Below, piece by piece: positions 4,817 to 27,383 of a stretch of 64,000 nt of DNA. The position numbers and the translations under genes are program-made. Origin of the DNA: Longimicrobiales bacterium (GTDB lineage: Bacteria > Gemmatimonadota > Gemmatimonadetes > Longimicrobiales > Gaopeijiaceae); contig CBDBCF010000002.1 in the NCBI GenBank assembly GCA_965202985.1, positions 288,001-352,000 of the forward strand, read 5' to 3'. Position 1 is the stretch's first letter. The number at the start of each line of letters is the position of its first letter. Below the pieces are notes generated by a model. The model was not told the DNA's origin. It ran no database searches and worked only from the letters and a program-made list of their open reading frames with translations.

Positions 4817-5686
4817 ATGGCCTTGACTCTTGCTTACCTGGGACCGGAGGGGACGTACAGCGAGCAAGCGGCGCTGGGGTACGGTCCGCGGGCTCGGCGG
4901 GTGCCGTTCGGAAGCATTCCGGCGGCGATCCGGGCGGCGGAGGGCGGGGAGGCGGACGAGGCGGTCGTGCCGATCGAGAACAGCTTGGAGGGCGCCGTCA
5001 CCTCGACGACCGACCTGCTGATCCACGAGACGGCGCTCAAGATCAAGCGCGAGATCGTCGTCCCGATCCGCCATTGCCTGGTCCTGCCGCCGGGCGCCGA
5101 CGCGGCCCAGGTCGCCGTGATCTTCTCCCACCCCCAAGCGACGGCGCAGTGCCGCGGCTACTTGGGACGGCGCTTCCCGGACGCGGGGCTCTCGGCGTCG
5201 CTCAGCACCGCCGCGGCCGTGGGGGACATGTTGGTGAGCAAGCGCCCCGCCGCGGCCGTCTCCAGCCGTCGCGCGGCCGAACTGTTCGGCGGCGAAGTCG
5301 TCGCGAGCGGGATCGAGGACGCCGCGAACAACCAGACCCGGTTCGTGGTCCTGGGCGCCGACGACGCCCCGCCCACGGGCCGCGACAAGACGTCCGTCTG
5401 CTTCGACTTCAGCCACGACGGCCCCGGCATCCTCCACAACGCCCTAGGCGCGCTGGCGTCGCGCGAGATCAACATGCTCAAGATCGAGTCCCGCCCCGAC
5501 AAGCGAAGCCCCGGCCGCTACTACTTCCTGCTGGACGTGGAGGGCCACCGCACCGACCCCGCCGTCCGCGACGCCCTTGCGGACATTGCCCGGCCCGCCG
5601 CGTCGTTCAAGGTTCTAGGCTCGTATCCCAGGGCGGACCGAGAGGGGGACAGGGACAAGGCCGCTGTTGAACGACGACCAAGATGA
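4817..5686 (+). CDS. pheA: Prephenate dehydratase with C-terminal ACT domain
   Basis: AYLGPEGTYSEQAA, VVPIENSLEG, SHPQA..QC, NQTRF, PGIL, KIESRP motifs. Confidence 0.96.
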   Translation: MALTLAYLGPEGTYSEQAALGYGPRARRVPFGSIPAAIRAAEGGEADEAVVPIENSLEGAVTSTTDLLIHETALKIKREIVVPIRHCLVLPPGADAAQVAVIFSHPQATAQCRGYLGRRFPDAGLSASLSTAAAVGDMLVSKRPAAAVSSRRAAELFGGEVVASGIEDAANNQTRFVVLGADDAPPTGRDKTSVCFDFSHDGPGILHNALGALASREINMLKIESRPDKRSPGRYYFLLDVEGHRTDPAVRDALADIARPAASFKVLGSYPRADREGDRDKAAVERRPR

Positions 5687-5995
5687 GACGGTAGTGACAA
5701 CCAGATGAGACCGTCGGAGGCGGCTGTGATCCGAGGTCGAGGGTTCGCGTGCGGGCTTGGTCCTGTCGTTCGGAGTCGATCGTCGGTGATCGTGGAGAGG
5801 GTCCAGCTACATCAGCCTGCCCGAATGAGGAGGAGTGCTGATGGCCAGCTGGCACGTGAAATGATGGCCAGGTGAGGTAGTACATCGGACCCGATCGGAC
5901 CGACCGCTCCCGCGTGGACAACGTTGTTCCCAATCGGTTGGCGACTACGAGTGCGCAGCCAAGCTTGAACGACGCTGTCCCCCACGGCTGCAACC

Positions 5996-6024
5996 TTGAC
6001 GCACAGACGAAATCCCACTTTAAT
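5996..6024 (+). promoter_or_regulatory. Sigma70-type promoter for the small ORF at 6079
   Basis: TTGACG (5996-6001), 17 bp spacer, TTTAAT (6019-6024); AAGGAG RBS at 6061-6066. Confidence 0.6.
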
Positions 6025-6078
6025 GTGCGACTATTTGTAGGCAACCAACCACATTCTCGAAAGGAGTCCAAGATCACC

Positions 6079-6315
6079 ATGAGCAGACTCGCCAAGAAAC
6101 CCGTCGCCCCGATCGTCGAGATCCTCCTACAGATCAAAGAAGGCCAGCGCCCCACGCAGGGAGACGCCCTGGAAGAGGCGATCGCACGTAGGTGCGTCAC
6201 GGAGCGGATTTCCGAGCCACCGCTTGATCCGGATGTTCCTCCCCCGCCTCCCGTGTACGCACTTACGGGCAAGGGCGAGGAGTACCTAGCGCAACAGGAA
6301 GACGCCAACCAGTAG
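6079..6315 (+). CDS. 78 aa hypothetical protein, winged-helix-like
   Basis: RBS and promoter upstream; IVEILLQI helix and YALTGKGEEYL wing motif (YxLTxKGxxxL); second decayed copy downstream. Confidence 0.6.
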   Translation: MSRLAKKPVAPIVEILLQIKEGQRPTQGDALEEAIARRCVTERISEPPLDPDVPPPPPVYALTGKGEEYLAQQEDANQ

Positions 6316-6343
6316 GAGACGATAAGAAGACGAGTGCGGAGGC

Positions 6344-6445
6344 CGCTCAACGAAGGCCGGTGCCTCGACCCCGGTGCCACTGCCGACTTCTTCGCTGGGC
6401 TGGGTGGAGCACGGCACGGTCTATCCCCGCACACACGGGGAAGCC
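6344..6445 (-). CRISPR. Hybrid mini-array: degenerate I-G repeat (6344-6380), 36 nt spacer (6381-6416), type I-E-like 29 bp repeat (6417-6445)
   Basis: CGCTCAACGAAGGCCGGTGCCTCGACCCCGGTGCCAC differs from the array consensus at 4 positions; minus strand of 6417-6445 reads GGCTTCCCCGTGTGTGCGGGGATAGACCG, closely resembling the I-E repeat GTGTTCCCCGCGCCAGCGGGGATAAACCG. Confidence 0.8.
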
Positions 6446-6489
6446 CCCGTCCGTCAGGCGTCCGGCCGACGACGACGGCGCGACGAACC

Positions 6490-6697
6490 GCCCCGATCAT
6501 CGAGATCCTGCGGACAGATCAAAAACGGCCAGCGCTCCACGCAAGGGGATGCCCTGGAAGGGGCAATCGCACGCTGGTACGTCACGGAGTGGACTCCCGA
6601 TCAACCGCTTGATCCAGGTGTCCCTACCCAGCCTCCCATGTACGCACTTACGGGCAAGGGCGACGAGTGCCTAGCGCAACAGGAAGACGCCAACTAG
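6490..6697 (+). pseudogene. Decayed second copy of the 78 aa winged-helix-like ORF
   Basis: Start and RBS missing; +1 frameshift near 6511 (GATCCTGCGGACAGATC vs GATCCTCCTACAGATC); reads QIKNGQRSTQGDALEGAIAR...YALTGKGDECLAQQEDAN. Confidence 0.8.
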
Positions 6698-6728
6698 TAG
6701 GAGACGACAAGAAAACGAGTGCGCAGGC

Positions 6729-9700
6729 CGCTCAAACGAAGGCCGGGGTCGACCCCGGCAACACGCGTGCAGGGCAGGGGTGGTCACCGAGACCGGTCCC
6801 GCTCAACGAAGGCCGGGATCTCGACCCCGACAACACCCGAAGGTTCCGGCTTGCAATGTGTCGCAAATCGCTCGCTCAACAAAGGCTGGGGCCTCGACCC
6901 CGGCAACACACCTCGGCGCACGCGGCTTCCCACAACACGGACGCGCGCTCAACGAAGGCCGGGGCCTCGACCCCGGCAACACGTCGGTGTCCCACTTCAA
7001 CATGACCGGCTCTGGGCGCGCTCAACGAAGGCCGGGGCCTCGACCCCGGCAACACTCGCACCTGCCATGGGCAGGTTGGACCGACGGGCAGCGCTCAACG
7101 AAGGCCGGGGCCTCGACCCCGGCAACACTCGCACCTGCCATGGGCAGGTTGGACCGACGGGCAGCGCTCAACGAAGGCCGGGGCCTCGACCCCGGCAACA
7201 CGGGCGGTGGTCGGGTTGGCCATGGTGGCGCATCCGGTCGCTCAACGAAGGCCGGGGCCTCGACCCCGGCAACACCGGCCCGGGGCGGGTTGCGCGCGTT
7301 GCGAAAAAGCTCGCTCAACGAAGGCCGGGGCCTCGACCCCGGCAACACCAGCGTGCCGGCTGGCCACGCGGCCTCGATTTCGAACGCTCAACGAAGGCCG
7401 GGGCCTCGACCCCGGCAACACTCGAGCAAGCGACGTATGGCGCGGCGTGGTTCGACGCCGCTCAACGAAGGCCGGGGCCTCGACCCCGGCAACACGACGC
7501 CCTAGGGCGCGTCTAGGGCAGGCTGGACGCCCGCTCAACGAAGGCCGGGGCCTCGACCCCGGCAACACGTGCCCCGGCGCATCTCCACGCCGGTGTCGGT
7601 GAACGCTCAACGAAGGCCGGGGCCTCGACCCCGGCAACACCGGATCGGGGCCGACGCGCGATTGCCCACCTCGAGCGCTCAACGAAGGCCGGGGCCTCGA
7701 CCCCGGCAACACTTGCAGGATCAAGTGGGGCGTGGCGCCGCGAAAGTACGCTCAACGAAGGCCGGGGCCTCGACCCCGGCAACACTTCAGCGGATGCGTC
7801 GATGGTGAGCACGAACGAGGACGCTCAACGAAGGCCGGGGCCTCGACCCCGGCAACACGACGGATGGCCGCTTCCAGCGCTGGACATTGAAAACGCTCAA
7901 CGAAGGCCGGGGCCTCGACCCCGGCAACACCTGCTCGCCAGACATCGGGGACTCGGTCTCCGGCCCGCTCAACGAAGGCCGGGGCCTCGACCCCGGCAAC
8001 ACACGCCAGTATCGAACGACGGCGCCACGGTCCGGCACGCTCAACGAAGGCCGGGGCCTCGACCCCGGCAACACCCCATCTCCTGAAGACCCGCGGAGAG
8101 CAGGCGGGCCGCTCAACGAAGGCCGGGGCCTCGACCCCGGCAACACGAAGCGTCATGACGCTGGCCCGCCTCGAGTCCAGCCGCTCAACGAAGGCCGGGG
8201 CCTCGACCCCGGCAACACTGTCTCCGTTGGTTGGCGATGGTCCATGCACTAATCCGCTCAACGAAGGCCGGGGCCTCGACCCCGGCAACACACGACGCGA
8301 TACGGCTGGCGACCGAGCGCATGGAGCTCGCTCAACGAAGGCCGGGGCCTCGACCCCGGCAACACGTCATGACCGACGAAACAATCTCCGTGCTGGACCC
8401 GCTCAACGAAGGCCGGGGCCTCGACCCCGGCAACACGCGTCCGATCCGCCCGTCGCCGACGAGGTGCAGCGCGCTCAACGAAGGCCGGGGCCTCGACCCC
8501 GGCAACACCGCGTGTTCGTGCCGTATTGCGGGCACGGCGTGGCCGCTCAACGAAGGCCGGGGCCTCGACCCCGGCAACACCCGGCCCGGAACCGACAGAA
8601 ACGCACGAAGAGGATCGCTCAACGAAGGCCGGGGCCTCGACCCCGGCAACACACCGACGCGCAGATCAACACGCTGGCCGATGGTCGCCGCTCAACGAAG
8701 GCCGGGGCCTCGACCCCGGCAACACATCCCGCCGCCCAGCATGACCCGGCCGCTCCCGACCGCTCAACGAAGGCCGGGGCCTCGACCCCGGCAACACGAG
8801 GCCAGCGCGATCGCGAGGCAGCACGTGCTGCACGCTCAACGAAGGCCGGGGCCTCGACCCCGGCAACACCGGGATCAGAGACGCCATCATGTCGGGCAGG
8901 CGGGCCGCTCAACGAAGGCCGGGGCCTCGACCCCGGCAACACTCGCCGCCGCGATGTCACTTCGGTTCCAGCTTTACATACGCTCAACGAAGGCCGGGGC
9001 CTCGACCCCGGCAACACGAGCAGCTGGCGGAGCGGTTCACGTTCGATCGAGTGACCGCTCAACGAAGGCCGGGGCCTCGACCCCGGCAACACATCACCGT
9101 GGTCGAGACGGTGCCGACGCGAGGGCTCGCTCAACGAAGGCCGGGGCCTCGACCCCGGCAACACAGGCGCCGCCGGGTAGTCCGAGACATAGTCTCAATC
9201 CGCTCAACGAAGGCCGGGGCCTCGACCCCGGCAACACAATAGTTCGCGACTCTCTCCCGATACGATCATGTCCGCTCAACGAAGGCCGGGGCCTCGACCC
9301 CGGCAACACGCGGAGCCGTCGTTGCGACTCCGGGCGCTGGAGCCCGCTCAACGAAGGCCGGGGCCTCGACCCCGGCAACACATCTGATCGTCCAGCAGCA
9401 ATGCGAGCTTTTCGAGATCGCTCAACGAAGGCCGGGGCCTCGACCCCGGCAACACTCGGCCCAGAAGTCCTTCAGCGCGTACTTCGAGATCGCTCAACGA
9501 AGGCCGGGGCCTCGACCCCGGCAACACATGCCGTAGTCGTCGCAGTCGGCGACCTCCGGCGTCGCTCAACGAAGGCCGGGGCCTCGACCCCGGCAACACA
9601 CCACTCGTCCGGGCGCATCGGCGTGCCCGGCCCGCGCTCAACGAAGGCCGGGGCCTCGACCCCGGCAACACTGCACCACTAGTCCGGGCGCATCGGCGTG

Positions 9701-12700
9701 CCCGGCCCTCGCTCAACGAAGGCCGGGGCCTCGACCCCGGCAACACCTCGTCGCGCACGCGCGTGCCCCACTTGGTCTGCTCGCTCAACGAAGGCCGGGG
9801 CCTCGACCCCGGCAACACCTCCGACAACGCCTCGTGGCCTTCGTGGTCAAGGCCGCTCAACGAAGGCCGGGGCCTCGACCCCGGCAACACCTCCGACAAC
9901 GCCTCGTGGCCTTCGTGGTCAAGGCCGCTCAACGAAGGCCGGGGCCTCGACCCCGGCAACACTCACGGGCATCGACGAACCCGTGAAAGGCGCCGCGCGC
10001 TCAACGAAGGCCGGGGCCTCGACCCCGGCAACACGAAGCTGAACCGCGACGTCTATTTCCCGATGGCGGACCGCTCAACGAAGGCCGGGGCCTCGACCCC
10101 GGCAACACACGTGCACGCACGTGGCCCGCGCGGCGCCGCGGACCGCTCAACGAAGGCCGGGGCCTCGACCCCGGCAACACACGTGCACGCACGTGGCCCG
10201 CGCGGCGCCGCAGACCGCTCAACGAAGGCCGGGGCCTCGACCCCGGCAACACACGCCCCCGAGCTACAAGACCCAGAAGCACGTGCTCGCTCAACGAAGG
10301 CCGGGGCCTCGACCCCGGCAACACTTTCGAGGGAGCGTCGGCCGGCCCGTGCCGAACAGCCGCTCAACGAAGGCCGGGGCCTCGACCCCGGCAACACGAC
10401 CGGGAAGCCTCGCGCCTCCCGCGTATCCTAATGCGCTCAACGAAGGCCGGGGCCTCGACCCCGGCAACACTTGCTGCAAACAGTGAATACGAACAGTATC
10501 GGACGTCGCTCAACGAAGGCCGGGGCCTCGACCCCGGCAACACGAGACGACGAGGACGTGGCCCTGGCGGAGGCGGAGCGCTCAACGAAGGCCGGGGCCT
10601 CGACCCCGGCAACACCGGGCTTCCGCCGCCGCCGCTGAACGTGGACACGTCCGCTCAACGAAGGCCGGGGCCTCGACCCCGGCAACACCGCCCACTTTCG
10701 CTTGCGTTCGCGCTCCCATTGTGCGCTCAACGAAGGCCGGGGCCTCGACCCCGGCAACACTTGGCGTTGCCCGTGCCGCTCGCCGCATGGGCGGACGCTC
10801 AACGAAGGCCGGGGCCTCGACCCCGGCAACACGTCGTGTCCTCGTCCGTGATCACGATGGGCTTGACCGCTCAACGAAGGCCGGGGCCTCGACCCCGGCA
10901 ACACGGTTCAATCGTTCCAAGATTCGCTGCGGTTGATCGCGCTCAACGAAGGCCGGGGCCTCGACCCCGGCAACACTGGTGCTCTTGGTGGTGCTCATGT
11001 CGTTCTCCTAGAACGCTCAACGAAGGCCGGGGCCTCGACCCCGGCAACACGTAGCGTGGAGGCCCGCGTAGATGGCGCGCCCGAGACGCTCAACGAAGGC
11101 CGGGGCCTCGACCCCGGCAACACCCGCGCGAGACGGTGCCCAGGGGGAACGAGCCGAACGCTCAACGAAGGCCGGGGCCTCGACCCCGGCAACACCGCCG
11201 CCGTGCCGTTGCTCGCGCTCGTGACCACCCACGCTCAACGAAGGCCGGGGCCTCGACCCCGGCAACACCGCAAGCGGCAGTGGGCTCCGTCGCCATCCCG
11301 ACCAGCGCTCAACGAAGGCCGGGGCCTCGACCCCGGCAACACAGCTGGTCGATCCCCTGCTGGTCCTGCGGTGCCATCCGCTCAACGAAGGCCGGGGCCT
11401 CGACCCCGGCAACACCGCGTCGTCGTGATGGCGGACATGCACATGTGGCACGCTCAACGAAGGCCGGGGCCTCGACCCCGGCAACACCACGACCTTTCCG
11501 ACACGTCCTGCGCTTCTTCGAGCGCTCAACGAAGGCCGGGGCCTCGACCCCGGCAACACCCGTGTCGTGGTCGATGCCCCTTTCCCTGGCGGCCGCCGCT
11601 CAACGAAGGCCGGGGCCTCGACCCCGGCAACACGGTCGTGTACGCGCCAAGCGTCGCAGACCCGATCCCTCGCTCAACGAAGGCCGGGGCCTCGACCCCG
11701 GCAACACCTCCGCCAAGCCGTCGGTGTCGAACTTCGCCATCACCGCTCAACGAAGGCCGGGGCCTCGACCCCGGCAACACAGCTGCCGGCCACGCGCACG
11801 GCAAGGGCATGAAGTCCGCTCAACGAAGGCCGGGGCCTCGACCCCGGCAACACCCAGTCGGCCAGCACGTCGTCGTACAGATCGTTGGGCGCTCAACGAA
11901 GGCCGGGGCCTCGACCCCGGCAACACGTCCGCAACGTCAACAGGAGACGCCGCGACATGCACGCTCAACGAAGGCCGGGGCCTCGACCCCGGCAACACCC
12001 GGCGGTGCGCCAGCGCCCATGCCAAACGATGAGCCGCTCAACGAAGGCCGGGGCCTCGACCCCGGCAACACTGGCCACCTTCCACGCCGCCTGCGTGCGC
12101 GACATCGCTCAACGATGGCCGGGGCCTCGACCCCGGCAACACGGCCGACGTGGCGCCTGGCCCCAGCGCGTCGGCAACGCTCAACGAAGGCCGGGGCCTC
12201 GACCCCGGCAACACGCCGGCAGCGAGCGCGGGGAGATCGGGATTTTCGACCGCTCAACGAAGGCCGGGGCCTCGACCCCGGCAACACCATCGGAGAGCGG
12301 ACGCATCTGCGCCTGCACGGTCACGCTCAACGAAGGCCGGGGCCTCGACCCCGGCAACACGGCCGGCGAGAGCCACGTCGAGCCTCCGTCCAGGGACGCT
12401 CAACGAAGGCCGGGGCCTCGACCCCGGCAACACTGGCGGGCGGCTGGAAGTCCCCGCAGATGCCGGCGTACGCTCAACGAAGGCCGGGGCCTCGACCCCG
12501 GCAACACCGCCGGCAGCGAGCGGGGGGAGATCGGGATTTTCGATCGCTCAACGAAGGCCGGGGCCTCGACCCCGGCAACACCACCTCCGGACACCAGCCC
12601 AGCACCGCCTGCAACGACGCTCAACGAAGGCCGGGGCCTCGACCCCGGCAACACCTGTCACGTCACCACCGTGCCGACGAGCTGACCCTCCGCTCAACGA

Positions 12701-15700
12701 AGGCCGGGGCCTCGACCCCGGCAACACGAGGCAGTTGGGCTCGCACGTGCGGCAGACGCCCCACGCTCAACGAAGGCCGGGGCCTCGACCCCGGCAACAC
12801 GTGGAGGCATTGGAAGCGCAGGTTCGGACGCAATCCGCTCAACGAAGGCCGGGGCCTCGACCCCGGCAACACGACTACGAGGGGCTCTACACGTCCGAGC
12901 GGGTGCACGCTCAACGAAGGCCGGGGCCTCGACCCCGGCAACACGAGAGAGACATGACGGACGCTACGACGACGACCGCTCAACGAAGGCCGGGGCCTCG
13001 ACCCCGGCAACACTCGTGTGGATGACTGCCGACGGCCGCGACTGGGTCGCTCAACGAAGGCCGGGGCCTCGACCCCGGCAACACAGGCGCGCCGCCGGGA
13101 GCGCAAGGTGCGCAAGGTCGCGCTCAACGAAGGCCGGGGCCTCGACCCCGGCAACACCAGGAACAAAGGACGTCATCGCTCCTCCTCCATCGCCGCTCAA
13201 CGAAGGCCGGGGCCTCGACCCCGGCAACACTTCGGGCAGCGCGTCCAGCATCTGACGAACGGGGTCCGCTCAACGAAGGCCGGGGCCTCGACCCCGGCAA
13301 CACACGAAGAGAAGTCCGCGCGGACGTTCGCCGCGGACGTCGCTCAACGAAGGCCGGGGCCTCGACCCCGGCAACACGTCTCCGACGAACACTCGCAAGT
13401 CGACGACGTAGCCGCTCAACGAAGGCCGGGGCCTCGACCCCGGCAACACCTCGCCGTCGCCGACGCGCACGCAAACCATGCGGCCCGCTCAACGAAGGCC
13501 GGGGCCTCGACCCCGGCAACACTCCTCGCGACGTGCGGCGCGAACGTAATGCACAAGCGCTCAACGAAGGCCGGGGCCTCGACCCCGGCAACACGGCCGA
13601 CGTAGAGAAGCGTAACACTTCCGACCATGCGCTCAACGAAGGCCGGGGCCTCGACCCCGGCAACACCCCTTTCCGTTGGTCGGCTGCTCGTCGCCCGGCT
13701 CCGCTCAACGAAGGCCGGGGCCTCGACCCCGGCAACACGCCTTGGCGGCGCGCAGCGTGGAAGCATACACGCTGGCGCTCAACGAAGGCCGGGGCCTCGA
13801 CCCCGGCAACACCGCCGCAGGCGTCCATGTTCCGAAGTCGATGGGCTCCGCTCAACGAAGGCCGGGGCCTCGACCCCGGCAACACCAGCTCTTCCAACGC
13901 CAGGCTGTCGGACCTCTGGACCGCTCAACGAAGGCCGGGGCCTCGACCCCGGCAACACACGGTCACGGTGACAGACAACGACGACTTCGTGCGACGCTCA
14001 ACGAAGGCCGGGGCCTCGACCCCGGCAACACGGACTGCGCCGTCGCGGCGGCGCGGCGCTTGGGCACGCTCAACGAAGGCCGGGGCCTCGACCCCGGCAA
14101 CACCCTGGCGGGGCTGGGGGGATCGTCGGCCAGCTTGAACGCTCAACGAAGGCCGGGGCCTCGACCCCGGCAACACCGTCGCGGCAAGGCGGGCGTGGCG
14201 CCGGAATCCGCACCGCTCAACGAAGGCCGGGGCCTCGACCCCGGCAACACCGGCGCGTCGGTCAGCCAGTTCGCGATCGGACAGGCCGCTCAACGAAGGC
14301 CGGGGCCTCGACCCCGGCAACACGATACGGCGAGCCGCCGTCCGGACAGACCAGCGCCGCTCAACGAAGGCCGGGGCCTCGACCCCGGCAACACTGCGTC
14401 CCCGCCGTAATGCGCCTCGACCAGCGGGACGCTCAACGAAGGCCGGGGCCTCGACCCCGGCAACACGCCGCCCCCGCCCCCCAGCCGGGCCGGGAGGATG
14501 CACGCTCAACGAAGGCCGGGGCCTCGACCCCGGCAACACAGGGCGCGATGGCGCCGCTCGAGATGCTGATGGCGCACGCTCAACGAAGGCCGGGGCCTCG
14601 ACCCCGGCAACACACGTTCAGCAAGACGGGTTCGCCCCTGCTCAACCGCGCTCAACGAAGGCCGGGGCCTCGACCCCGGCAACACGCCTGGTACAGCGCG
14701 CGCTTGCGCCCCCGGACGGTCGCTCAACGAAGGCCGGGGCCTCGACCCCGGCAACACAACCGGATCTCGCCCTTCCTCGCGAAGATGCACGGCGCTCAAC
14801 GAAGGCCGGGGCCTCGACCCCGGCAACACGTCGAGGGTCTCGGACGCCGGTACGGAGTCCACGAACGCTCAACGAAGGCCGGGGCCTCGACCCCGGCAAC
14901 ACATGGCCGCGATCCCCAGGATGGCCGCGGGGGCGACCGCTCAACGAAGGCCGGGGCCTCGACCCCGGCAACACGCGTATCCACCCTGCACCCGCGCGGA
15001 CACGTCAGGACCGCTCAACGAAGGCCGGGGCCTCGACCCCGGCAACACGGGAAACGACCATGATAGCCACCAATACCATGGTCACGCTCAACGAAGGCCG
15101 GGGCCTCGACCCCGGCAACACCTCCCACCCGATGAAGAGGGACTCCACGCCTCGCCGCCGCTCAACGAAGGCCGGGGCCTCGACCCCGGCAACACTGGTG
15201 GCGCGCGCCGTCCGCGCCTTCGGTCCGGTCCGCTCAACGAAGGCCGGGGCCTCGACCCCGGCAACACCGCGCCGCCGAACTACAAGACGCAGAAGCAGAC
15301 GCTCGCTCAACGAAGGCCGGGGCCTCGACCCCGGCAACACAGGCTGTCCTTGGTGCTCATGTCTTCTTCTCCTAGAACGCTCAACGAAGGCCGGGGCCTC
15401 GACCCCGGCAACACCGCACGCCACGGGTCAGCCCCCGGTACACGCCCTGCGCTCAACGAAGGCCGGGGCCTCGACCCCGGCAACACCGCGAGGTGCGGCA
15501 CGAGGCCGCGGAGCAGCATGCCCGCTCAACGAAGGCCGGGGCCTCGACCCCGGCAACACAGCCGCATCGTTCGTCGGCAGTCCAGTTCTTCACGGCGCTC
15601 AACGAAGGCCGGGGCCTCGACCCCGGCAACACATCACGACCAGGTCGGGCAAGGATTTCAGCTACTCCGCTCAACGAAGGCCGGGGCCTCGACCCCGGCA

Positions 15701-16500
15701 ACACGGTACAGCATCGGCGACCTGTGGGTAGACATCCCCCGCTCAACGAAGGCCGGGGCCTCGACCCCGGCAACACCGGAACATCGGGCAAGGATTGACC
15801 AGATGCTGGTCCGCTCAACGAAGGCCGGGGCCTCGACCCCGGCAACACCCCCGGCGAGCAGCGCGTGCCGCCGCGTTCTTTGCGCGCTCAACGAAGGCCG
15901 GGGCCTCGACCCCGGCAACACCAGACCTCGACTTCCTCTGCGACGAAACCTGCCTCGCTCAACGAAGGCCGGGGCCTCGACCCCGGCAACACCGCTGATG
16001 CACTGGCGGCCGTCCGACGCACTGTACCCCGCTCAACGAAGGCCGGGGCCTCGACCCCGGCAACACACGAGCCTCGTCGCCCGTCTGCCCTGGTGGCCGC
16101 ACGCTCAACGAAGGCCGGGGCCTCGACCCCGGCAACACGTTTTCCACGGAACGTATGCTGGCTTCTTTACCCACGCTCAACGAAGGCCGGGGCCTCGACC
16201 CCGGCAACACCTGTGCGTCGCCGCCGGCGTGGAGGCCGTGAAGGCCGCTCAACGAAGGCCGGGGCCTCGACCCCGGCAACACCTTTTCGTGCGCTTCGCG
16301 CTCCGACTTGATTTTGGCCGCTCAACGAAGGCCGGGGCCTCGACCCCGGCAACACGGTCGTGTGGATGACCGCCGACGGCCGCGACTGGGTCGCTCAACG
16401 AAGGCCGGGGCCTCGACCCCGGCAACACATCTCGAACTCGGGCAGCAGCCCCTTGCGCGAAGCCGCTCAACGAAGGCCGGGGCCTCGACCCCGGCAACAC
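6729..16500 (-). CRISPR. Type I-G CRISPR array, about 135 repeats and 134 spacers (manual count); 37 bp repeat GTGTTGCCGGGGTCGAGGCCCCGGCCTTCGTTGAGCG; spacers 32-38 nt
   Basis: Near-invariant repeat every ~72-73 bp with GCCGGGG/CCCCGGC hairpin; three degenerate repeats at left (6729, 6800, 6873) mark the trailer; one internal variant at 12106; leader side abuts cas2. Confidence 0.99.
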
Positions 16501-16663: not shown

Positions 16664-16954
16664 TCAGACGACCCAAGGATCTCCGAGACGGCGAGCGCTG
16701 CGCCTTCCGTACTCCAACTTCGAGTCGTTGATTTCTCCGGAAAACCGATAGACGATCACCGAGTCATGTTCTTCGTCGATAGCATCCTGAACCTCGCCGA
16801 TCATCCGGGCGAATGAAGTTGGAGAGACCCTGCACTCGAACACGGAGAACTGGACGCGCTGTCCGTACTTCTTACATACCTGCGCTATTCTCCGCAGGCG
16901 CGGCGCTCCCGCACCCTCCGTGTCTCCAATATCGTACGACACCAGTATGTCCAT
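16664..16954 (-). CDS. cas2: CRISPR-associated endonuclease Cas2
   Basis: MDILVSYDI..RLRRIAQVCKKYGQRVQFSVFEC; 96 aa; between cas1 and array. Confidence 0.97.
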   Translation of the reverse strand: MDILVSYDIGDTEGAGAPRLRRIAQVCKKYGQRVQFSVFECRVSPTSFARMIGEVQDAIDEEHDSVIVYRFSGEINDSKLEYGRRSARRLGDPWVV

Positions 16955-16958
16955 GGTC

Positions 16959-17975
16959 TCACGCCAGCACGAACGGAGGATAGGCTGGCAGGTCCCCACG
17001 CAAGGACCGGGCAAGCAGTGTGGCCTGAACCGACGGCAGTGCCCATCGGCCCACCGTTCTGTCGCACACCCGGTGATACAATTCGTCTTCCTTGTGTCTC
17101 TCCCATGCATGCAACAGATTGGTTCTTCCGTCGTCGCTCAAGTAACACGCACCACCGGGCGTCTCGACGAAACTATCACGCGAGACCTGTCTTCTGCGAA
17201 TGAGCGACACGACAAACCGATCCGAAAGCGGGCGCAATTCCTCCACAAGGTCAAGCGCTAGCGAGGGCCGACCCGATCGTGGCCGATGGAGAAACCCAAT
17301 CTGGTAGTCGAGGCCCACACTCTCCAAGGCTCCTATGAATTCAGTCAGCAACAGGCCATAACAGAATCCAAGCAGTGCGTTGGCCGGATCCCGGGGCGGT
17401 CTCCGCTTACGCCCAAAAAAGGGAAACCGGCTCTTCGCAAGAGCCTGTCTAACCGCCCGGAAGTAGACCCGTGCGGCATCGCCTTCGATCCCGCGCACAT
17501 GGTCCGCAGATTCCGCGTCCGCCACGCGTTCGATGCGTTGGCGGATTGATTCTGCTCGTTCGCCGAGTGTACGAGACCTGTCGTCATCCTGATCGTCACG
17601 TGACCATCTGCCTACCACTGTCCTGCAATTCTGAAGCTTTGCCGCCACGATCGACTTAGCAATCGCCAGCGACCGAGCTTCGTCGCTCGACGCTCGGTAC
17701 TGTGCGCTTCGCAGGTGAACGTTACCACCAGTTGCTCCGCCAACCACGAACCTGATTGCGCCGCTCCGACGCAGCGCTGCCACTCGTACACCTCTCCTAA
17801 CGCACTCTTCCATGGCCTGAGAAGTCAATTGGCCCCCGCCCAACAGGACAAGAGCGTCTATCGCTTCAAGGGGGATGTGCTGGCTCCCGTCTGGGGTAGT
17901 GATCCGAAGTGCGCCTTTCCGATGCCTGACCTTGGCCCGATGGTGGCGAACGTAGGCCGTATTCAAGTAGCGCAC
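16959..17975 (-). CDS. cas1: CRISPR-associated endonuclease Cas1 (unfused)
   Basis: RGIEGDAARVYF, RRPPRDPANALLGFCY, GFLHRPRSGRPSLALDLVEELRP. Confidence 0.98.
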   Translation of the reverse strand: MRYLNTAYVRHHRAKVRHRKGALRITTPDGSQHIPLEAIDALVLLGGGQLTSQAMEECVRRGVRVAALRRSGAIRFVVGGATGGNVHLRSAQYRASSDEARSLAIAKSIVAAKLQNCRTVVGRWSRDDQDDDRSRTLGERAESIRQRIERVADAESADHVRGIEGDAARVYFRAVRQALAKSRFPFFGRKRRPPRDPANALLGFCYGLLLTEFIGALESVGLDYQIGFLHRPRSGRPSLALDLVEELRPLSDRFVVSLIRRRQVSRDSFVETPGGACYLSDDGRTNLLHAWERHKEDELYHRVCDRTVGRWALPSVQATLLARSLRGDLPAYPPFVLA

Positions 17976-18583
17976 GAATAGACAACCTCCTTCATGTACC
18001 GGGCGACACGTTCCGGCGCACCGGTCACCTCAGGTAGGCAGTGATGTCTCAACTGACATTCGGTGCACCGTTGGTCATTCGGTGCAACGGGCAACACACC
18101 CGTTCGCAGCTGTTCTCGTATTGATCGAATTGTCGCCTTCACTGTCTGCCGTAGCGATGACGTCAACGACACCCTTTCGCGACGTCTCGGCCCGCCGTAC
18201 CATATGTCGCCTTCGGTGACGGTGGTATCGAGCATTTCTTCTAAGCACAGTGCCTGTGCGCAAAGCTGCAGATCGGCCGCATTTCCATGTCGAACGCCTG
18301 ATTTGTACTCAACGGGACGGAGGATGCCATTCTCGATTTCCACAACATCTGCCCGCCCCGAGAGTCCCAGGACCTCCGACCACAGCGGGATTGATCGCAT
18401 TACAAGTCTGCCTCGTTCCCTTCGATGTCGATCGGTGTCTACCCGGTGATGTGCGCGTAGTCCACGAACCGTATGTTTGTTGTGGAGCCAGACACCGTCG
18501 CCGTGAATGAGTGCGCATTGCCGGGAACAGTACGCGTAGTGCTCGAGGGCTGATATTCGAACGATCGGCTCTGGGCTCACCAT
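17963..18583 (-). CDS. cas4: CRISPR-associated exonuclease Cas4
   Basis: ISALEHYAYCSRQ, GRADVVE..PVEYK, QLCAQALCLEEM, C-terminal CTECQLRHHC Fe-S cysteines. Confidence 0.96.
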   Translation of the reverse strand: MVSPEPIVRISALEHYAYCSRQCALIHGDGVWLHNKHTVRGLRAHHRVDTDRHRRERGRLVMRSIPLWSEVLGLSGRADVVEIENGILRPVEYKSGVRHGNAADLQLCAQALCLEEMLDTTVTEGDIWYGGPRRRERVSLTSSLRQTVKATIRSIREQLRTGVLPVAPNDQRCTECQLRHHCLPEVTGAPERVARYMKEVVYSCAT

Positions 18584-19488
18584 GGCTCTGAACCGAAAGC
18601 GCATGTGTAGTCACCCGAAGATCTTCTAGGGACGATTTTCCAGGCTGCGTGCACGCCGAGTCGGTGCCAGGTCGATCTGGCTTCAGGGTTCCAAACATCA
18701 AGCAATGCATCAATACCGTGGTGTTCCAGGGGTTGAGACCAAGCTGGCCAGAGAAACCGCCGTTCTCTCCGCTTGTCCAGTGCATCCTCGACTTCAACCA
18801 TTCGCCAGCCTCTTTGTAGGGGCGACACGCCAGACGCGCGGCCTAACCGTTCATCAGTCCCGTTGCCGCGGACAGGAAGAAGAGCCAGGCCAAAGAATGC
18901 GAGTATTTCAACGACAGGATCGACGAACTTGCCGTGTTCGTCAGATTGTGATCCTAAACGTGTCAGATCAAATCCCAACCCATTGTCCTTGACCCGTGCT
19001 GCTCGTCCCGCGAGGGAGTCCATCAGTCGATCTCGTGAAGACTGCGACAACGCCTTTTGCAATTTCAGAATGCGGTGATGAAGCCACTTGATGGGTCCAG
19101 GTCCGGCAGCGTCAAAAGGCGCGTGGGCAACTTCCCCATTTTTGTCCACATGCAAGTCCGTAAGTGTGGAAGATATCGTCCACGACTGAGGATCGCCGCG
19201 AGCGGCACGTGTTCGGGCAACCAGTGCGTCAACATGCACCTTGCGTTCCAATGGATTGTCGGGCTGCCATTCGGACGCCAATGGCATCGAGTCAAGTGCA
19301 TCTGCATCTGGCCACGCAGCCTCGAGAAGCGAAATCGGATCGTTGTCGTCGGCCGACAGAACTGCGATAGGCGTGGGCTCGGAGGTCCATCCCAACCGAA
19401 TTCGGGAATCAAGAACAGTGGCACCGACGGCCGCGAGCCAACCGTTGATCCAATCAGCCGGCAAGCCGATGCAGGATACATGGGCCAT
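18577..19488 (-). CDS. Type I-G large subunit, short Csb3/Cas8g-like form (303 aa)
   Basis: Position between cas3 and cas4; N-terminal GLPADWINGWLAAVG and PVVEILAFFGLALLPV, FLWPAW motifs resembling Cas8u/Csb3. Confidence 0.72.
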   Translation of the reverse strand: MAHVSCIGLPADWINGWLAAVGATVLDSRIRLGWTSEPTPIAVLSADDNDPISLLEAAWPDADALDSMPLASEWQPDNPLERKVHVDALVARTRAARGDPQSWTISSTLTDLHVDKNGEVAHAPFDAAGPGPIKWLHHRILKLQKALSQSSRDRLMDSLAGRAARVKDNGLGFDLTRLGSQSDEHGKFVDPVVEILAFFGLALLPVRGNGTDERLGRASGVSPLQRGWRMVEVEDALDKRRERRFLWPAWSQPLEHHGIDALLDVWNPEARSTWHRLGVHAAWKIVPRRSSGDYTCAFGSEPW

Positions 19489-22338
19489 TTATGTGGTCCT
19501 CTTGGTGGACAAAGTGGAGTTGCGTCCAGATACCGCATGGTCCGCCCGGCATACTATCGATTCCAGTAGCGCGAGGCCCCAGGGTCCGAATTCCGAATTG
19601 AGCCTATGGAACCTGGCTGGTTGCTCCCAATCGACCTCGGAAAGATCAGCAGACGTCGTGAGGGAATGGCCATCGATGCTGCAAGCCAAGGCCGCCGGAG
19701 CTTCGTCGAGCACAGGGCCGACGAGCGGCCGTCCGTGGCCATGATGGCTGATGACGAGATGAAGAAGCAATTCTCGCAGAAGTCCGGTGCCCCATTCGGA
19801 GTCGAAGTCGAGCCACTGACTCACGAGACGTGCGGACAGCACCTCGTGACGGCCTCCACGGGGCCATCCGGCGGCAACGCGGGCTGCGTTCCAACTGTGG
19901 CGCGGCAAGCCCGACTTGGCGAGCATAGCGCATGTGTGGTCGCCTCTGGGGTCCAGCCATCGCTGGAAGCGCTCGTCCGCTTTTCCAATGTCGTGTAGGC
20001 GACCGGCCCGTGCCACGACCTCAACCAAGTCGCGACGCATGCCAAGGCGATTTGCAATCGTCTGCGCATGCTTCTCGACATCCTCACTGTGACGGTCCAA
20101 GGATTCGACGTTCGCAGCCAAGGATCTCTCGTCGAACTCGTCGCTACTGCGCTCTTTCTCTGTGGTTTCAACACGAAGTCGAGCAACCTCTCCTCGTGGG
20201 ACAACTGCCACGGGATTCAGGGAGTCAACGAAGTCTGTCCACTCCTCTTGACGCCATCCCGACGGCGTATTTGCTTCCCGAAGGTTGTCCACAATCCGCT
20301 CGACAGCCTGTCGTTGCTCGGCAGGATCGAGATCGACGCCGTCTTCCTGGGGAATCCCCGTGGCCGTCCGGATCAACTTGTCGGGAAGGGCAACGCCGGA
20401 CATGCGCTTGATCGCAACCGGATCGAGTGGCAACCCGTTGCCAGGGAGGGACACGTCGACCACTGGCGACGCTCGCGACGACGGTTCCCACCCAAATTCG
20501 TCGAGAAGCCCACGGTCAACCGGAAGCACCAGCGAGTCTCCGGGTCGCAAGTCGTCGGCTCCGACCCTTTCGACGGTCACGCGATCTGCGGCGATCCGAT
20601 GTATTTCTTCATCCTGCTCCAGAGCTTCTCGAAATTCCCAAATTGGAACACTAACCGCCTCTCGGTCTTTTGCTCTGGGCCACAACCGAGCTCCTGCCAA
20701 GTCGCGCTGGCCGGTCGGGTCGCCGTCACCGTCGGGAATGTGCGCTCGCCAAATCACAGAGACCATGCGATCGACTCTGGCAATCCCAGAGAAAAACGAC
20801 TCCACCGGCGCTTCGCCAGGAGGCGGCGTGGTTGTCTTGATCCACTCCCACAGCAGTCCATAGAGAATTTCTGGCGCGCGTCCGCACTCGTCTTTGGGAA
20901 GGCCAAGGACCTCCTTGATGTGACGGGAGCAAAGGTTCAGTTCTTCCGACTCTTCGCCAGACCGTTTCTGAAGCCGCTGCCAGACGATCGCCGGCTCTGG
21001 ACCGTAGACAGGCCATTCAGCAGGATTGTTGGTTGGCGTGACGCGATGTTGCTTTGGTGGAGGTGCATGGAGGTACACAGCGCGAGCGTGATCATGACGG
21101 CCGAGCCGGTTCATCCGTCCGAATCGCTGCGTAAGCGCCCTTACTCCACAAGTCTCCGTAACGACATATTCGGCGTCGATGTCCGCTCCAACTTCCAGTG
21201 TTTGGGTCGCAACAACGACCAAGTGACGGTCTCGACACGCGCCATGCTCCCTGTCAGACGCCATGCCGTGCTCCGGATGGAGTATTCGACTTCGGATGTC
21301 CTCCGCTTCGCGTTCTCGTGCTCGCCCGGTCAGCAGCTTGACTTCCGCGTCGCGGCCCAGCAGCTTTCTCAGCAAACCGAACACTTGGCGTGCGGTTTTC
21401 GGAGTGTTGGCGAACACCACGCCTGCTGCCGGTGCTCGTGCGCGATCAAGCAAATCTCTCATCGCCTCGGCAAGCTTACTTGGCACGTCTTTGGCTTCGC
21501 ATTTTCGAAGTTCCACCGGCTTGGGCGCATCCAAGCGCTTTTTGACGATGGCGTTGTCGAAGTCGTTTTCGTCCAGGTCGAATCGCGAGGCGACCGGTTC
21601 GCCGCCGGTTGCGGTTAGGGATACGAGCTGTGGTTCGGATCGCGATTGAGGCAGAACGTCGTGTCCATGGGGAGCGCACCCCTGAAGGGCATCGCAGAGT
21701 GTTCGCAGGTGTGGCGCGAGATGGGCTTCGTCGAGCAAGACGAGACTGTCGGTTCCGGCCATGGCGGCGTCGATGGGACGCCGCATTCGGCTCGATCCGT
21801 AGCCACGAAACAAAAGCCGCGACCCGTACATCGGGAGTGTGGACAAGATGACTGCAGGCTGGGACGGATCGGTGGGCGTGCGGGATTCAACACCTCCTCG
21901 GAGCCGTATGACCTCCAAAGCACATGCCGAGGAAGATGCGCTGAGGGAACGCAGTCTGTCGCCGACGGCTGTGATGTCTCCACCAGCGGCGTCGGATCTC
22001 AATTCGACGCTCGATAGATCATCCAGGGCGGCCGCGAGCTTGTCAGCATGCTCCCAGGTGGAATCGACAAGCATGCGCCGGTTGACTACCCACCAGATCC
22101 GGGTTGGCGCGGACCGGAGAGTGGGATCAAGGTGCGCTTGGGACGCCAACCACCATACGGCAATGTCCAAACACGCCGTCTTGCCAAGGCCAGTCGGCAC
22201 ACCGACTTCAATCGGCCATCTGTTGTCTTCGCGGACTTGACGAGCAAGCCGAGCCTGCCAGGGAAACGGTTCACGGCCCTTGTTGATGGCCCGGTAGAAC
22301 GCTTCAAAGTCCGGCATTGGAAGCTGAGATTCGGTCAC
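19489..22338 (-). CDS. cas3: Type I-G Cas3 helicase with C-terminal HD nuclease domain
   Basis: PFPWQ, PTGLGKT, DEAH, SLTAT, ATQTLEVGADID, QRFGRMNR; C-terminal LHDIGK, RHE, SHHG, ADH. Confidence 0.97.
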   Translation of the reverse strand: MTESQLPMPDFEAFYRAINKGREPFPWQARLARQVREDNRWPIEVGVPTGLGKTACLDIAVWWLASQAHLDPTLRSAPTRIWWVVNRRMLVDSTWEHADKLAAALDDLSSVELRSDAAGGDITAVGDRLRSLSASSSACALEVIRLRGGVESRTPTDPSQPAVILSTLPMYGSRLLFRGYGSSRMRRPIDAAMAGTDSLVLLDEAHLAPHLRTLCDALQGCAPHGHDVLPQSRSEPQLVSLTATGGEPVASRFDLDENDFDNAIVKKRLDAPKPVELRKCEAKDVPSKLAEAMRDLLDRARAPAAGVVFANTPKTARQVFGLLRKLLGRDAEVKLLTGRAREREAEDIRSRILHPEHGMASDREHGACRDRHLVVVATQTLEVGADIDAEYVVTETCGVRALTQRFGRMNRLGRHDHARAVYLHAPPPKQHRVTPTNNPAEWPVYGPEPAIVWQRLQKRSGEESEELNLCSRHIKEVLGLPKDECGRAPEILYGLLWEWIKTTTPPPGEAPVESFFSGIARVDRMVSVIWRAHIPDGDGDPTGQRDLAGARLWPRAKDREAVSVPIWEFREALEQDEEIHRIAADRVTVERVGADDLRPGDSLVLPVDRGLLDEFGWEPSSRASPVVDVSLPGNGLPLDPVAIKRMSGVALPDKLIRTATGIPQEDGVDLDPAEQRQAVERIVDNLREANTPSGWRQEEWTDFVDSLNPVAVVPRGEVARLRVETTEKERSSDEFDERSLAANVESLDRHSEDVEKHAQTIANRLGMRRDLVEVVARAGRLHDIGKADERFQRWLDPRGDHTCAMLAKSGLPRHSWNAARVAAGWPRGGRHEVLSARLVSQWLDFDSEWGTGLLRELLLHLVISHHGHGRPLVGPVLDEAPAALACSIDGHSLTTSADLSEVDWEQPARFHRLNSEFGPWGLALLESIVCRADHAVSGRNSTLSTKRTT

Positions 22339-22343
22339 GGTTT

Positions 22344-23756
22344 CTAGGTTCTGCTATGTGAGTCGAGCGGTGCACACAGCCCGAACCCCCGTTGCCGCCC
22401 GCTGCCGATGACGATTGGCCCACGAACGGGCTCAGCAAACTGCAGCGCCACATGGCAATAGGGCAATCGAGGCCGGTCGCGTCGGTGCACTTCGACCGGC
22501 GCAAGATCGACGGCTCCCCTAACAAGTGGAGCCCGCGCCGCACGAAACGCTATCGGCTCTGGAAGTCCGGCGTGACGACACCAACGGGAGACTTCGTCCA
22601 AGTCGAGCGTTCCGTGCCGCTCGTGGACTGCAGGAAAGGCGGTAACCCACTCGCGGGATTCTCTTTCCCATCTGCGGGGCTGGACAGCCCAAGGGCGGTC
22701 CATGTGTCGACGTGCGACCGACACGTCGACGCCGTTGCCAACCAGTCGCCGCACCGAATACACCGCACTTCGCACGCTCCGGCGTTCGGCGGCGTCCGAC
22801 TCGGGCGGCAACCACAACGCCAGTCCGTGAATTCGCCCTCTCGAATGAGGGAAAGCCACGTCGGGCAGAGCGAGGAAGCGAGCAAGTTCGTAGCCCTTTC
22901 CACTCCAGCCGTGCCCATGGAGAACCGCGGGCGGCTGTCCGAACATCCGTTGATAGTGGCTGAGAACAGCTTTCTTGAACAAGCCCGTCAGGACGCCGAT
23001 TCGCCGGCCAGAAACGGCCTTGTCCAGGCTCATCCAAGCCACGACGCTCCCACCCGATGGCCGCCGTCCCGACCGTGGGTCGCGGTAGGCAGCCTCGTGA
23101 CGCAACCCCGGGAACTGCGAGCGACTGACACTTGCCCCCTCCCGTTGCCATGCCTGGTACATCTGGTCGAGGATGCTGAGGTCTCCTGGCCTCGGAACAT
23201 TGATGTGGAGCGTGCCGTCGGAATCGGGTACGTATGCAACCCCCCGGCCGATCGGAGGCGGATCACCGGTGCGCACTCGGACGCGGGCCGGGGAATCGGA
23301 AGTGCCCAGGTACCCAATGCGGGCCGCGCGAAACCGCAGTGCGTCGAGGATTCGCTTTGAGGGCGGTGCCACATCCCACGAGTAGACAAGCCGGGGGTCC
23401 TTCGGTGCCACCCGGATGCTGGGTCGAACGAGCGCCCCCTCTCGAGCGACGTACTCCTGGTGCGTTTTCTGTTTGCCCGTGGAGTGGTGCTTGACCACAT
23501 AACGGGGCTGCATCTCCGAGTGTGGCGGGTTGCAGTCTGCGTGAATCACGGGGGGCGGCAACCGCTCGATCCACTCCAGTTCTGATCCATCGGTAGCGGT
23601 GCAACGATCTCCCGTCCCGTCTGCTGCGACGAACGCGGCGAAGAGCCGGAAGGGAGTAGGCGGCCACTCCGGGACCACCAGACGCCCCGTGTTCGCCGTG
23701 CCGAGTGCGTCTCCCCGGAAGGTTCCGTGAAGCAGCTCGGCCGATACCGAGAACAT
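22344..23756 (-). CDS. csb2: Type I-G Csb2 (Cas5-Cas6 fusion)
   Basis: PEWPPTPFRLFAAFVA, IGYLGTSDS, C-terminal VRGPIVIGSGRQRGFGLCAP G-rich loop; TGATG coupling to cas7. Confidence 0.93.
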   Translation of the reverse strand: MFSVSAELLHGTFRGDALGTANTGRLVVPEWPPTPFRLFAAFVAADGTGDRCTATDGSELEWIERLPPPVIHADCNPPHSEMQPRYVVKHHSTGKQKTHQEYVAREGALVRPSIRVAPKDPRLVYSWDVAPPSKRILDALRFRAARIGYLGTSDSPARVRVRTGDPPPIGRGVAYVPDSDGTLHINVPRPGDLSILDQMYQAWQREGASVSRSQFPGLRHEAAYRDPRSGRRPSGGSVVAWMSLDKAVSGRRIGVLTGLFKKAVLSHYQRMFGQPPAVLHGHGWSGKGYELARFLALPDVAFPHSRGRIHGLALWLPPESDAAERRSVRSAVYSVRRLVGNGVDVSVARRHMDRPWAVQPRRWERESREWVTAFPAVHERHGTLDLDEVSRWCRHAGLPEPIAFRAARAPLVRGAVDLAPVEVHRRDRPRLPYCHVALQFAEPVRGPIVIGSGRQRGFGLCAPLDSHSRT

Positions 23757-24955
23757 CAGCCGTCTCCGGCTTCCTCGCCGTCCAGATTGGGCCACGTCTT
23801 GCTGATCGCGTTGCACAGGTTGGGTTTGGGCGAAAGCACGAGCGGCTCTTGGTCCCAACCATCCAGTGGAACCCCGACGGCCCTCGCGTTCTCCTTGGCC
23901 TCGTTCACCATGCTCAGAACCCCCTCGGCGTTGATGATAGCACACGACTCATCGCCAGCACTTCCCAGCCACGTCACGACCGCCGTGGCCGGTCGAAGCT
24001 CGGCTCCCGACCGAAGCGCGAAGCCTCGCCCGAACGCGAGGACGTGCGCGTACAGGCCGAGAGCAACAAGCAGCGCGCGGGCCGCGCCGTCCGCTTTATC
24101 GTCATAGCCGCTTCCCAGATGGATCCGCCGGAGCTGGGCGAACGAAACCGTGGCCCGCTGACTGATCCGCGAGAAAGACACCGCCGCCGCGGTGGCCTCT
24201 TTGCCCATGAACGGCACCTGACCGTGACCGATCTCGGAGAGGGCGGCCTTCTTCTTGCCCTTGCCGAACTGCCAATAGGTGGAGTCATTGGGATCGAAGG
24301 CGACGCTCTCGTCGACGCTGAGATTCAGCGAGTCACCCTTGAGACCCCGCGTCCGTGTGTCCGTCGAGGCTGGATTCCAGCCGATGATCTCGGAGACCCA
24401 CGCCCTAGCGTGCTTGGCGTTGGAGCGCTTCTTCCCCAGGTGGGACTGCCAGAACCCGAAGAGAAGGGCTTGTGGGAACCACTTCATAAGCGGGGCGCAG
24501 GTCTGCGCGGTGGCTCCAAAGATGTCGCGCCCGATTTCTGTGTTAAGGAAGTCGCTGCCGCCCAGCATAGCGTCGCGGAGGTAGGCGTCGGCGTTCCTGT
24601 GGGGGAACTGCCAGCTGGACAGTTGCCGGGGCAGGTGGGGTGGAAGGTGGAGTCCATCCAGGTCAAGGACGAGTTCGGGGAGACCAGCGTCGGCCCGGCG
24701 TCGCCGCAGGGCGTCTTCCAGGCGGTTTGCCTGCGAGGGGACGTTGTCGATGACGATCACAGGCGTCGGCTTGTCATCATCGATCGACGCCCAACGACGA
24801 TCCTGCTGATACTCGCCGCCCTCGTAGACGGCTGGCTTCACCGGTGCCCCAGGCCCGGCCAGCGGTTCCAGATCAGTGTCGATGCGAATGCCGTCGTCAA
24901 AGTGGCTGTCGGCGCAACCGGCCAGCAGCGAGTCCAGAGTGATCGTTCGGGCCAT
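23756..24955 (-). CDS. csb1: Type I-G Cas7 (Csb1) backbone subunit
   Basis: VKPAVY, IDNVPSQANRLE, PHRNADAY, PQALLFGFWQS, SEIGHGQVP, LRSGAEL; GGAGG RBS. Confidence 0.94.
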   Translation of the reverse strand: MARTITLDSLLAGCADSHFDDGIRIDTDLEPLAGPGAPVKPAVYEGGEYQQDRRWASIDDDKPTPVIVIDNVPSQANRLEDALRRRRADAGLPELVLDLDGLHLPPHLPRQLSSWQFPHRNADAYLRDAMLGGSDFLNTEIGRDIFGATAQTCAPLMKWFPQALLFGFWQSHLGKKRSNAKHARAWVSEIIGWNPASTDTRTRGLKGDSLNLSVDESVAFDPNDSTYWQFGKGKKKAALSEIGHGQVPFMGKEATAAAVSFSRISQRATVSFAQLRRIHLGSGYDDKADGAARALLVALGLYAHVLAFGRGFALRSGAELRPATAVVTWLGSAGDESCAIINAEGVLSMVNEAKENARAVGVPLDGWDQEPLVLSPKPNLCNAISKTWPNLDGEEAGDG

Positions 24956-26632: not shown

Positions 26633-26652
26633 CCACCGGGGTCGGCCCCCCA

Positions 26653-27381: not shown

Positions 27382-27383
27382 TC

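Follow-up and report, generated by a model that had tools for sequence, protein, structure and literature searches.

The window analysed here, a 64,000-nucleotide stretch of a Longimicrobiales genome, contains a type I-G cas operon and a long I-G array, both on the minus strand, with the prephenate dehydratase gene pheA beyond the far end of the array. Between the array and pheA lies a short hybrid unit, in which a lone type I-E repeat is followed, one spacer length further on, by a degenerate I-G repeat. The features referred to below are, in window coordinates (G001 and G002 are congeners; G141 is a further genome):

4817..5686, plus strand: prephenate dehydratase gene (pheA), the fixed flank of a CRISPR slot; it stands beside CRISPR-cas in G001 and G002 as well.
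5665..5885, strand not assigned: end of a repeated element that recurs at 8 other places in the genome and has two matches each in G001 and G141.
6079..6315, plus strand: orphan open reading frame (ORF) of 78 aa within trailer copy T2, antisense to the array; the copy in T1 is truncated and frameshifted.
6102..6343, minus strand: trailer copy T2, behind the degenerate repeat.
6344..6380, minus strand: degenerate I-G terminal repeat, older copy, with 4 substitutions and 2 of 8 stem pairs broken.
6381..6416, minus strand: spacer-like stretch of 36 nt; it may have closed an old I-G array as its final spacer, or be an I-E spacer plus the start of a repeat.
6417..6445, minus strand: lone type I-E repeat; the invariant 28 nt are 6445-6418, and 6417 is the variable 29th base.
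6446..6490, minus strand: GC-rich linker of 45 nt, between the T1 breakpoint and the I-E repeat.
6491..6728, minus strand: trailer copy T1, directly behind the main array.
6729..16500, minus strand: main type I-G array with 135 repeats, each of 37 nt (a script located 134; one further variant lies in a 106 nt gap).
6765..6799, minus strand: spacer s133, the oldest (trailer-end) spacer, an anti-cas spacer that matches the cas4g-cas1g gene of G001 in frame at 33 of 35 positions.
16664..24967, minus strand: type I-G cas operon with csb1/cas7g, csb2, cas3g, a Cas3-extension family gene, cas4, cas1 and cas2, assigned from NCBIfam matches, that of the Cas3-extension family gene lying below the family cut-off.

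The spacers of the main array are 32–38 nt long. Several are duplicated or nearly identical (s128/129, s90/91, s86/87, s93/94, s2/48, s55/59 and s17/85), which suggests repeated sampling of related phages together with local duplications. Neither spacer overlaps nor the genomes of relatives yielded a usable protospacer set from which the PAM of this system could be read. A strong blast match in G141 was rejected as a protospacer, since no spacer matched there at ≤7 mismatches.

Read along the minus strand from 6445 to 6344, the hybrid unit consists of a 29 nt I-E-type repeat, 36 nt of spacer-like DNA and a 37 nt I-G repeat, with both repeats in the same orientation as the main array (16500-6729). 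This is the layout given in an earlier note on this DNA, which had also pointed out that the gap equals the spacer length of the resident I-G array; 124 of the 132 cleanly measured spacers are indeed 35–37 nt long. Two details of that description need adjustment. The 29 bp repeat and 36 nt gap hold as read, but the invariant I-E repeat in relatives is 28 nt, so that the gap comes to 36 or 37 nt according to where the boundary is placed. The mini-array is real, but it does not stand by itself: behind its I-G repeat follows another copy of the trailer, the older of the two. In the I-G register, the gap of the unit is a normal spacer. In the alternative I-E reading, the stretch is a 33 nt spacer, counted from 6417, with 3 opening bases of the next I-E repeat behind it, which at a period of 61 would begin at 6384; the 3-base match found at that position is also produced by chance in 5 of 127 array spacers used as a control. 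The I-E and I-G repeats have 9 of 12 bases in common in one frame, and over those 12 bases the degenerate I-G copy matches the I-E repeat at 8 and the I-G repeat at 9. Judged from these shared letters, a crossover between I-E and I-G repeats within the 12-base frame is possible. On the other side of the I-E repeat, the linker has no I-E repeat end 33 nt upstream, is unlike the leader ends of relatives' I-E arrays and has no match in relatives' loci.

The substitutions in the degenerate I-G copy fall at positions 4-6 and 20 of the array consensus. Its canonical hairpin has a probability of 0.00, versus 0.73–1.0 in consensus copies, and two other old I-G repeats have values of 0.2–0.7 for most hairpin pairs.

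The unit was compared with metagenome contigs from four of seven listed runs. A contig of 1386 nt from run X1, possibly the source sample, covers 5587-6972, and a contig of 314 nt from run X4, which belongs to another study, covers 6280-6593 at a depth of 3.2. Both cross the joint with 0 differences. Among the listed contigs of run X6 none crosses the unit, which tells neither for nor against it. The unit is a real feature and not a misassembly, the outcome that the earlier note had held up as a threat to its own reading.

The lone repeat is of type I-E, as had been proposed from its letters. Its 28 invariant bases are identical (28/28) to all 46 repeats of an array in another genome (locus L048 of G118; period 61 nt), in which the 29th base is variable (G15/T14/C14/A3) and which adjoins cse1, cas7e, cas5e, cas6e and cas1e. 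The I-E arrays of the congeners G001 and G002, which lie behind complete I-E operons, differ from the repeat of the unit by one loop base. The hairpin of the repeat has a z of −3.4 and, in context, forms 7 pairs with probabilities of 0.90–0.98. The repeat is present as a single copy in the 3.86 Mb genome at ≤7 substitutions, and a looser, degenerate I-E motif occurred once in the genome and 0 times in three genome shuffles. (Genome G125 also has a solitary I-E repeat, at about 10470 of locus L079; the 20 kb there contain neither another copy nor cas matches.)

The absence of I-E cas genes from the window, which the earlier note had recorded, extends to the whole genome as far as our searches went. 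Cas6e and Cas7e had no match in the assembly (92% complete, 2 contigs), and when six I-E proteins of G001 were used in a tblastn search, five gave no match and Cas3e matched only the resident cas3g. The genome is likely to be without I-E cas genes. Of the features of a working I-E array, the genome shows one repeat copy, with 3 bases matching at +61 and no cognate cas genes.

The site between pheA and a serine hydrolase gene is a swappable CRISPR-cas slot. A complete I-E operon with its array occupies the pheA side of the slot in two of three congeners. In G001, the slot holds an I-E operon, an I-E array, two I-G effector modules, cas4-cas1, cas2 and an I-G array, all directed toward pheA; the I-G array belongs to a different repeat family from that of the window. 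(The slot in G001, loci L011-L013 at about 2066800-2102000 of contig C1, also contains an IS3, its cas4-cas1 is a fusion, and its two I-G effector modules differ, one having Cas8g1 and the other a Cas3-extension gene.) In G002, the slot holds an I-E operon and array plus a decayed I-E array of five repeats beside pheA. The decayed array (L015, about 8130-8460, minus strand) runs opposite to the main I-E array of G002. In the third congener, G003, no cas genes or repeats were found in the 8.8 kb stretch examined behind pheA. Arrays of the I-E repeat were present in three of the four metagenome runs compared, those in X1 and X6 carrying spacers of G001, which indicates that an I-E donor lives alongside this organism. 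At the other flank of the slot in the window, the start of the serine hydrolase region (26290-27970) contains duplicated blocks of 100–220 nt. Beyond it lies a gene for an IrrE-like peptidase/repressor (28558-30450, minus strand), the orthologue of which (89% DNA identity) belongs, in G001, to the CRISPR slot, where it is flanked by the two I-G modules.

Behind the main array, the terminal I-G repeat and about 240 nt of trailer are present twice, and the I-E repeat sits between the two copies. T1 and T2 are identical in 206 of 243 columns. From the duplication of repeat plus trailer, the degenerate repeat can be identified as the last one of an older I-G array, which places the I-E repeat between two array ends. 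The two copies of the 78-aa ORF differ in 24 of 62 codons (17 non-synonymous, 7 synonymous), with changes distributed 8/7/10 over the codon positions and a frameshift in T1, a pattern that looks like neutral decay. The ORF was rejected as a functional partner of the unit, since no homologue was found: the matches in 17 of 400 other genomes were all weak and partial (E 0.001–0.01) and are read as noise, one Pfam match lay far below the cut-off, and the best Atlas score, 0.89, is a lead only. The product may have the look of a winged-helix protein. A purine-rich stretch precedes the start of the ORF, and a ribosome-site-like stretch behind its stop resembles array spacers 16 and 75, a hint that the trailer may be of phage-like origin. 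An insertion-sequence-like end, the repeated element at 5665-5885, lies ~200 nt from the unit; we presume it to be an insertion-sequence remnant.

The unit has been lost from a near-identical strain. A contig from run X3, with 3 differences in 893 bases, joins position 6223 to an I-G repeat via 19 other letters, thereby skipping T1 and the whole unit; its depth is 9, and only 35 bases lie on the short side of the joint. The spacer remnant in this joint has no match in the window. The spacer and trailer of the unit occur in no relative searched, the same-family I-G arrays of genomes G067 and G206 have no such unit behind them, and no strain with an intermediate state was found.

Most likely, turnover of CRISPR-cas cassettes left the unit behind as an inert scar. 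Recombination or replacement between I-E and I-G arrays, which the earlier note had kept as its fallback, gives the best fit to the observed parts of the unit, the I-E cassettes that congeners carry at this slot, the duplicated and decaying trailer, and the loss in the sister strain. The order of events and the recombination route that we infer are as follows. Counting outward from pheA, the first layer would be what remains of an older I-G array, its terminal repeat with trailer T2. The second layer would be one repeat of an I-E array, joined to the older I-G end by a deletion or crossover between co-oriented arrays, which the 9 of 12 shared repeat bases could have guided. The third would be the present I-G cassette; trailer T1 would have come with it or been duplicated by it, and its arrival would have pushed out whatever else there was of the I-E cassette. 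Since all arrays in G001 are co-oriented toward pheA, one deletion in such a layout would give an I-E-to-I-G joint. G001 is a model for this layout, not the ancestor, its I-G repeat being of another family. The unit may be transcribed by read-through, and would probably give no functional guide.

The features expected of a relic array are present, namely relatives with cognate cas genes and a full array at the same site, decay, and sporadic loss; the exception to the decay is the I-E repeat itself, which is undamaged. Several observations count against a scar. Its neighbours have decayed, yet the I-E repeat is intact (28/28 to an active repeat, hairpin >0.9); selection could explain this, and so could a recent arrival. 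The unit is letter-identical in the contigs of two studies. The gap has the length of an I-G spacer, which a random joint need not produce. The failure to find an intermediate strain, or the spacer or trailer in any relative, also weighs against a scar.

Similar I-E-to-I-G joints were sought with a degenerate-pattern scan of 185,579 species genomes. The scan returned 23 loci, 18 of which were dropped (16 within ordinary I-E arrays, where the 12-base motif fell in a spacer; L022, apparently a chance match in coding DNA; and L043, ambiguous). The five that were kept come from unrelated organisms: Hydrogenophilus (L026), Synechococcus (L027), Rhodospirillaceae (L032), Entotheonella (L035) and a deltaproteobacterium (L040). 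Five is neither a full count nor proof of enrichment, because the scan was confined to a single direction, gap range and motif set. The joints are uneven, measuring 101–115 nt from the I-E start to the I-G end, and three of the five have a second, damaged I-E repeat at period 61 that is fused to, or abuts, the 3' part of the I-G repeat. Among the five genomes, all drafts, csb2 was found in two and cas7e in two, with both genes in one and neither in two. Uneven joints without matching machinery fit scars better than they fit a selected RNA. Most like the present case is the genome of L032 (G460), which has I-G genes and an array of 39 repeats but no cas7e, and in which the hybrid unit lies at a remote position. 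Behind that hybrid unit (about 2990-3110, minus strand) stand some three tandem copies of the I-G handle. L040 (2995-3980) is a co-oriented chain of I-E, I-G and third-type repeats with duplicated units, the third type presumably being I-C-like; csb2 and cas7e were not found in that genome.

A more specific course of events, compatible with a scar, would name its driver. Spacer s133 was the only strong spacer-length match among G001-G003. At ≤3 mismatches it was matched in 1 of 120 other family genomes, and it had no match in the organism's own cas1. Its target in G001 lies between the I-E array and the I-G array of the same slot, and the 5' flank of the protospacer is TAC. (At loose contig ends in X1 and X4, the cas4g-cas1g gene was seen to be present in the same metagenomes.) An incoming I-G system might thus have taken its first spacer from a resident, G001-like cas4-cas1, after which Cas3 attack would have selected a deletion of the I-E plus I-G cassette, leaving the hybrid unit as the repair joint. 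The position of the target favours this course, since attack between the two arrays could select a joint-leaving deletion. The TAC flank resembles the TAT PAM reported for the B. lactis I-G system in the accessible part of PMC12915315 (the PAM given for T. sulfidiphilus is TTN; 10.1101/2022.08.08.503147), and anti-cas spacers have been described in E. coli (PMC2886076). However, the repeat that remains in the unit belongs to the family in which cas4 and cas1 are separate and not fused, as seen in its other carriers, G067 and G206; the spacer could equally stem from a mobile element or from free DNA of a neighbour; and no spacer of the array matches I-E genes. We consider eviction by an anti-cas spacer rather unlikely as the cause of the scar.

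The main proposal of the earlier note was that the unit gives a chimeric regulatory or anti-CRISPR RNA. According to this idea, read-through from the array would be cut at both repeats to yield a guide or decoy with an I-E handle, which would load into the I-G Cascade or act on an incoming I-E system. The intact I-E hairpin is in its favour. So is the presence, in three of the four runs, of co-resident relatives that carry this I-E repeat in full arrays and from which Cas6e could arrive by transfer. The accessible literature offers two further points: the I-G Cascade shows no specific binding of the 5' handle (10.1101/2022.08.08.503147), and one Csb2/Csb1 pair, from B. animalis, is reported to cut repeat variants with altered stems (10.1101/2022.08.19.504415), which would make cleavage possible. 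However, there is no Cas6e in the genome, and T. sulfidiphilus Csb2 binds the 3' hairpin, leaving an 8 nt handle (10.1101/2022.08.08.503147), whereas that hairpin is broken in the degenerate copy. A search for sigma-70-like promoters in 5600-6900 gave 0 sites with 0.1 expected, a weak test in a GC-rich (69%) organism. The best seed match of the unit's spacer in the cas region (16501-27000) is 12 nt long and lies inside cas3; since 9 of 132 control spacers met or exceeded that level, no cas-promoter match stands above background. A 21-mer of the 36 nt spacer had 0 exact matches in viral and metagenome contigs; the spacer had no target in phages and six plasmid records at chance level, and it showed no similarity to array spacers here or in relatives. 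An Rfam search gave 0 matches at E up to 5.

The arrangement is not conserved. The survey of other I-G loci that the earlier note had recommended found it in 0 of 313 other family genomes; the reverse order occurred in 0 of 314 family genomes, and metagenome and viral contigs gave 0 matches. Given the missing Cas6e, the broken I-G hairpin, the lack of conservation and the deletion in the sister strain, a chimeric RNA is unsupported; we regard it as disfavoured, not refuted, and as improbable. We give the same low credence to an elaboration in which the hybrid RNA locks the slot, soaking up incoming I-E Cas proteins while the oldest spacer destroys incoming cas4-cas1 cassettes. If this were true, the five unrelated joints would represent independent origins of such RNAs.

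A precise joint made by Cas1-Cas2 is slightly less credible still. Here, one prespacer with its ends at an I-E and an I-G repeat would have joined two arrays, as might be suggested by the 36–37 nt gap of the unit and by L027, in which 35 nt separate an intact I-E repeat from a full I-G-like one. This geometry is found in only one of the five other joints, which is the chance level, since 26 gap lengths were allowed and ~5 of them fit; three of the five have chimeric or abutting repeats instead, and the 5' end of the I-G repeat is damaged in the present unit. Least credible of all is that the assembly falsely joined the organism's own I-G array end to the I-E array of a co-resident relative, which run X1 does hold at about ten times the depth of this genome, because two studies' contigs cross the joint unchanged, the repeat differs by one loop base from that of G001 and the spacer is absent from the G001 array.

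Taken as a scar, the unit is a small, direct record of cas cassettes replacing one another. Repeats of different subtypes are joined in six unrelated lineages, including this one, and such joints open to testing the old proposal that recombination acting on the arrays themselves exchanges cas loci. They also carry a warning for searches for mini-arrays and RNA anti-CRISPRs, as a lone foreign repeat one spacer away from a cognate repeat can be debris. Should an RNA be made from the unit and be active, nature would have provided a cross-subtype guide or a decoy encoded on the chromosome, neither of which was found described in the literature searched.

Recombination at CRISPRs is a proposed route of cas locus replacement in E. 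coli (PMC2886076); PMC7145637 discusses recombination between arrays. In the literature searched, the coverage of which was incomplete and did not extend to supplements (that of the mini-array preprint included), no description of an I-E/I-G joint was found, and the accessible part of PMC12814883 has no mention of hybrid, chimeric or mixed arrays. The following comparisons likewise refer to the accessible parts of the sources cited.

Solitary repeat units and RNA anti-CRISPRs (Racr; PMC10651486) resemble the present unit in having one intact hairpin repeat without adjoining cognate cas genes. Those units are viral or plasmid-borne, often stand behind a promoter and match the cas subtype of the host in 83% of cases. 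Unlike them, the unit described here is chromosomal, lying between the cas operon and pheA, and has another repeat beside it in a host without I-E genes. The crlRNA/CreA/CreR mini-arrays (10.1101/2023.03.03.530964, in the text of which the terms I-G and I-U are absent) are similar in that two repeat-like sequences surround one spacer within a CRISPR-cas locus. They are conserved in related CRISPR-cas loci, derive from cognate, processable repeats and pair with promoters of cas or cargo genes, none of which applies to the present unit: its I-E repeat is non-cognate and its I-G hairpin is broken, it is not conserved in related loci, and its spacer does not pair with cas promoters above background.

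In Pyrobaculum, mixed-repeat arrays contain two repeat variants in one run, which have been attributed to recombination or to copying out of a different array (PMC3396285). The unit is likewise mixed, but whereas the Pyrobaculum arrays keep the CRISPR type, subtype, repeat length (28–29 versus 37 nt) and period (61 versus 72–73 nt) all differ here. The remaining likeness is to the relic or orphan arrays at hot spots of cas exchange described by Touchon and Rocha in 2010 (PMC2886076), which shrink to a few repeats after loss of their cas genes. The same is seen here, as are replaced cas loci and anti-cas spacers where the target genes are absent. Unlike those relics, the present unit couples a single repeat of another subtype with an I-G one, and the anti-cas spacer sits in an active array and is directed against another I-G variant instead of cognate genes.
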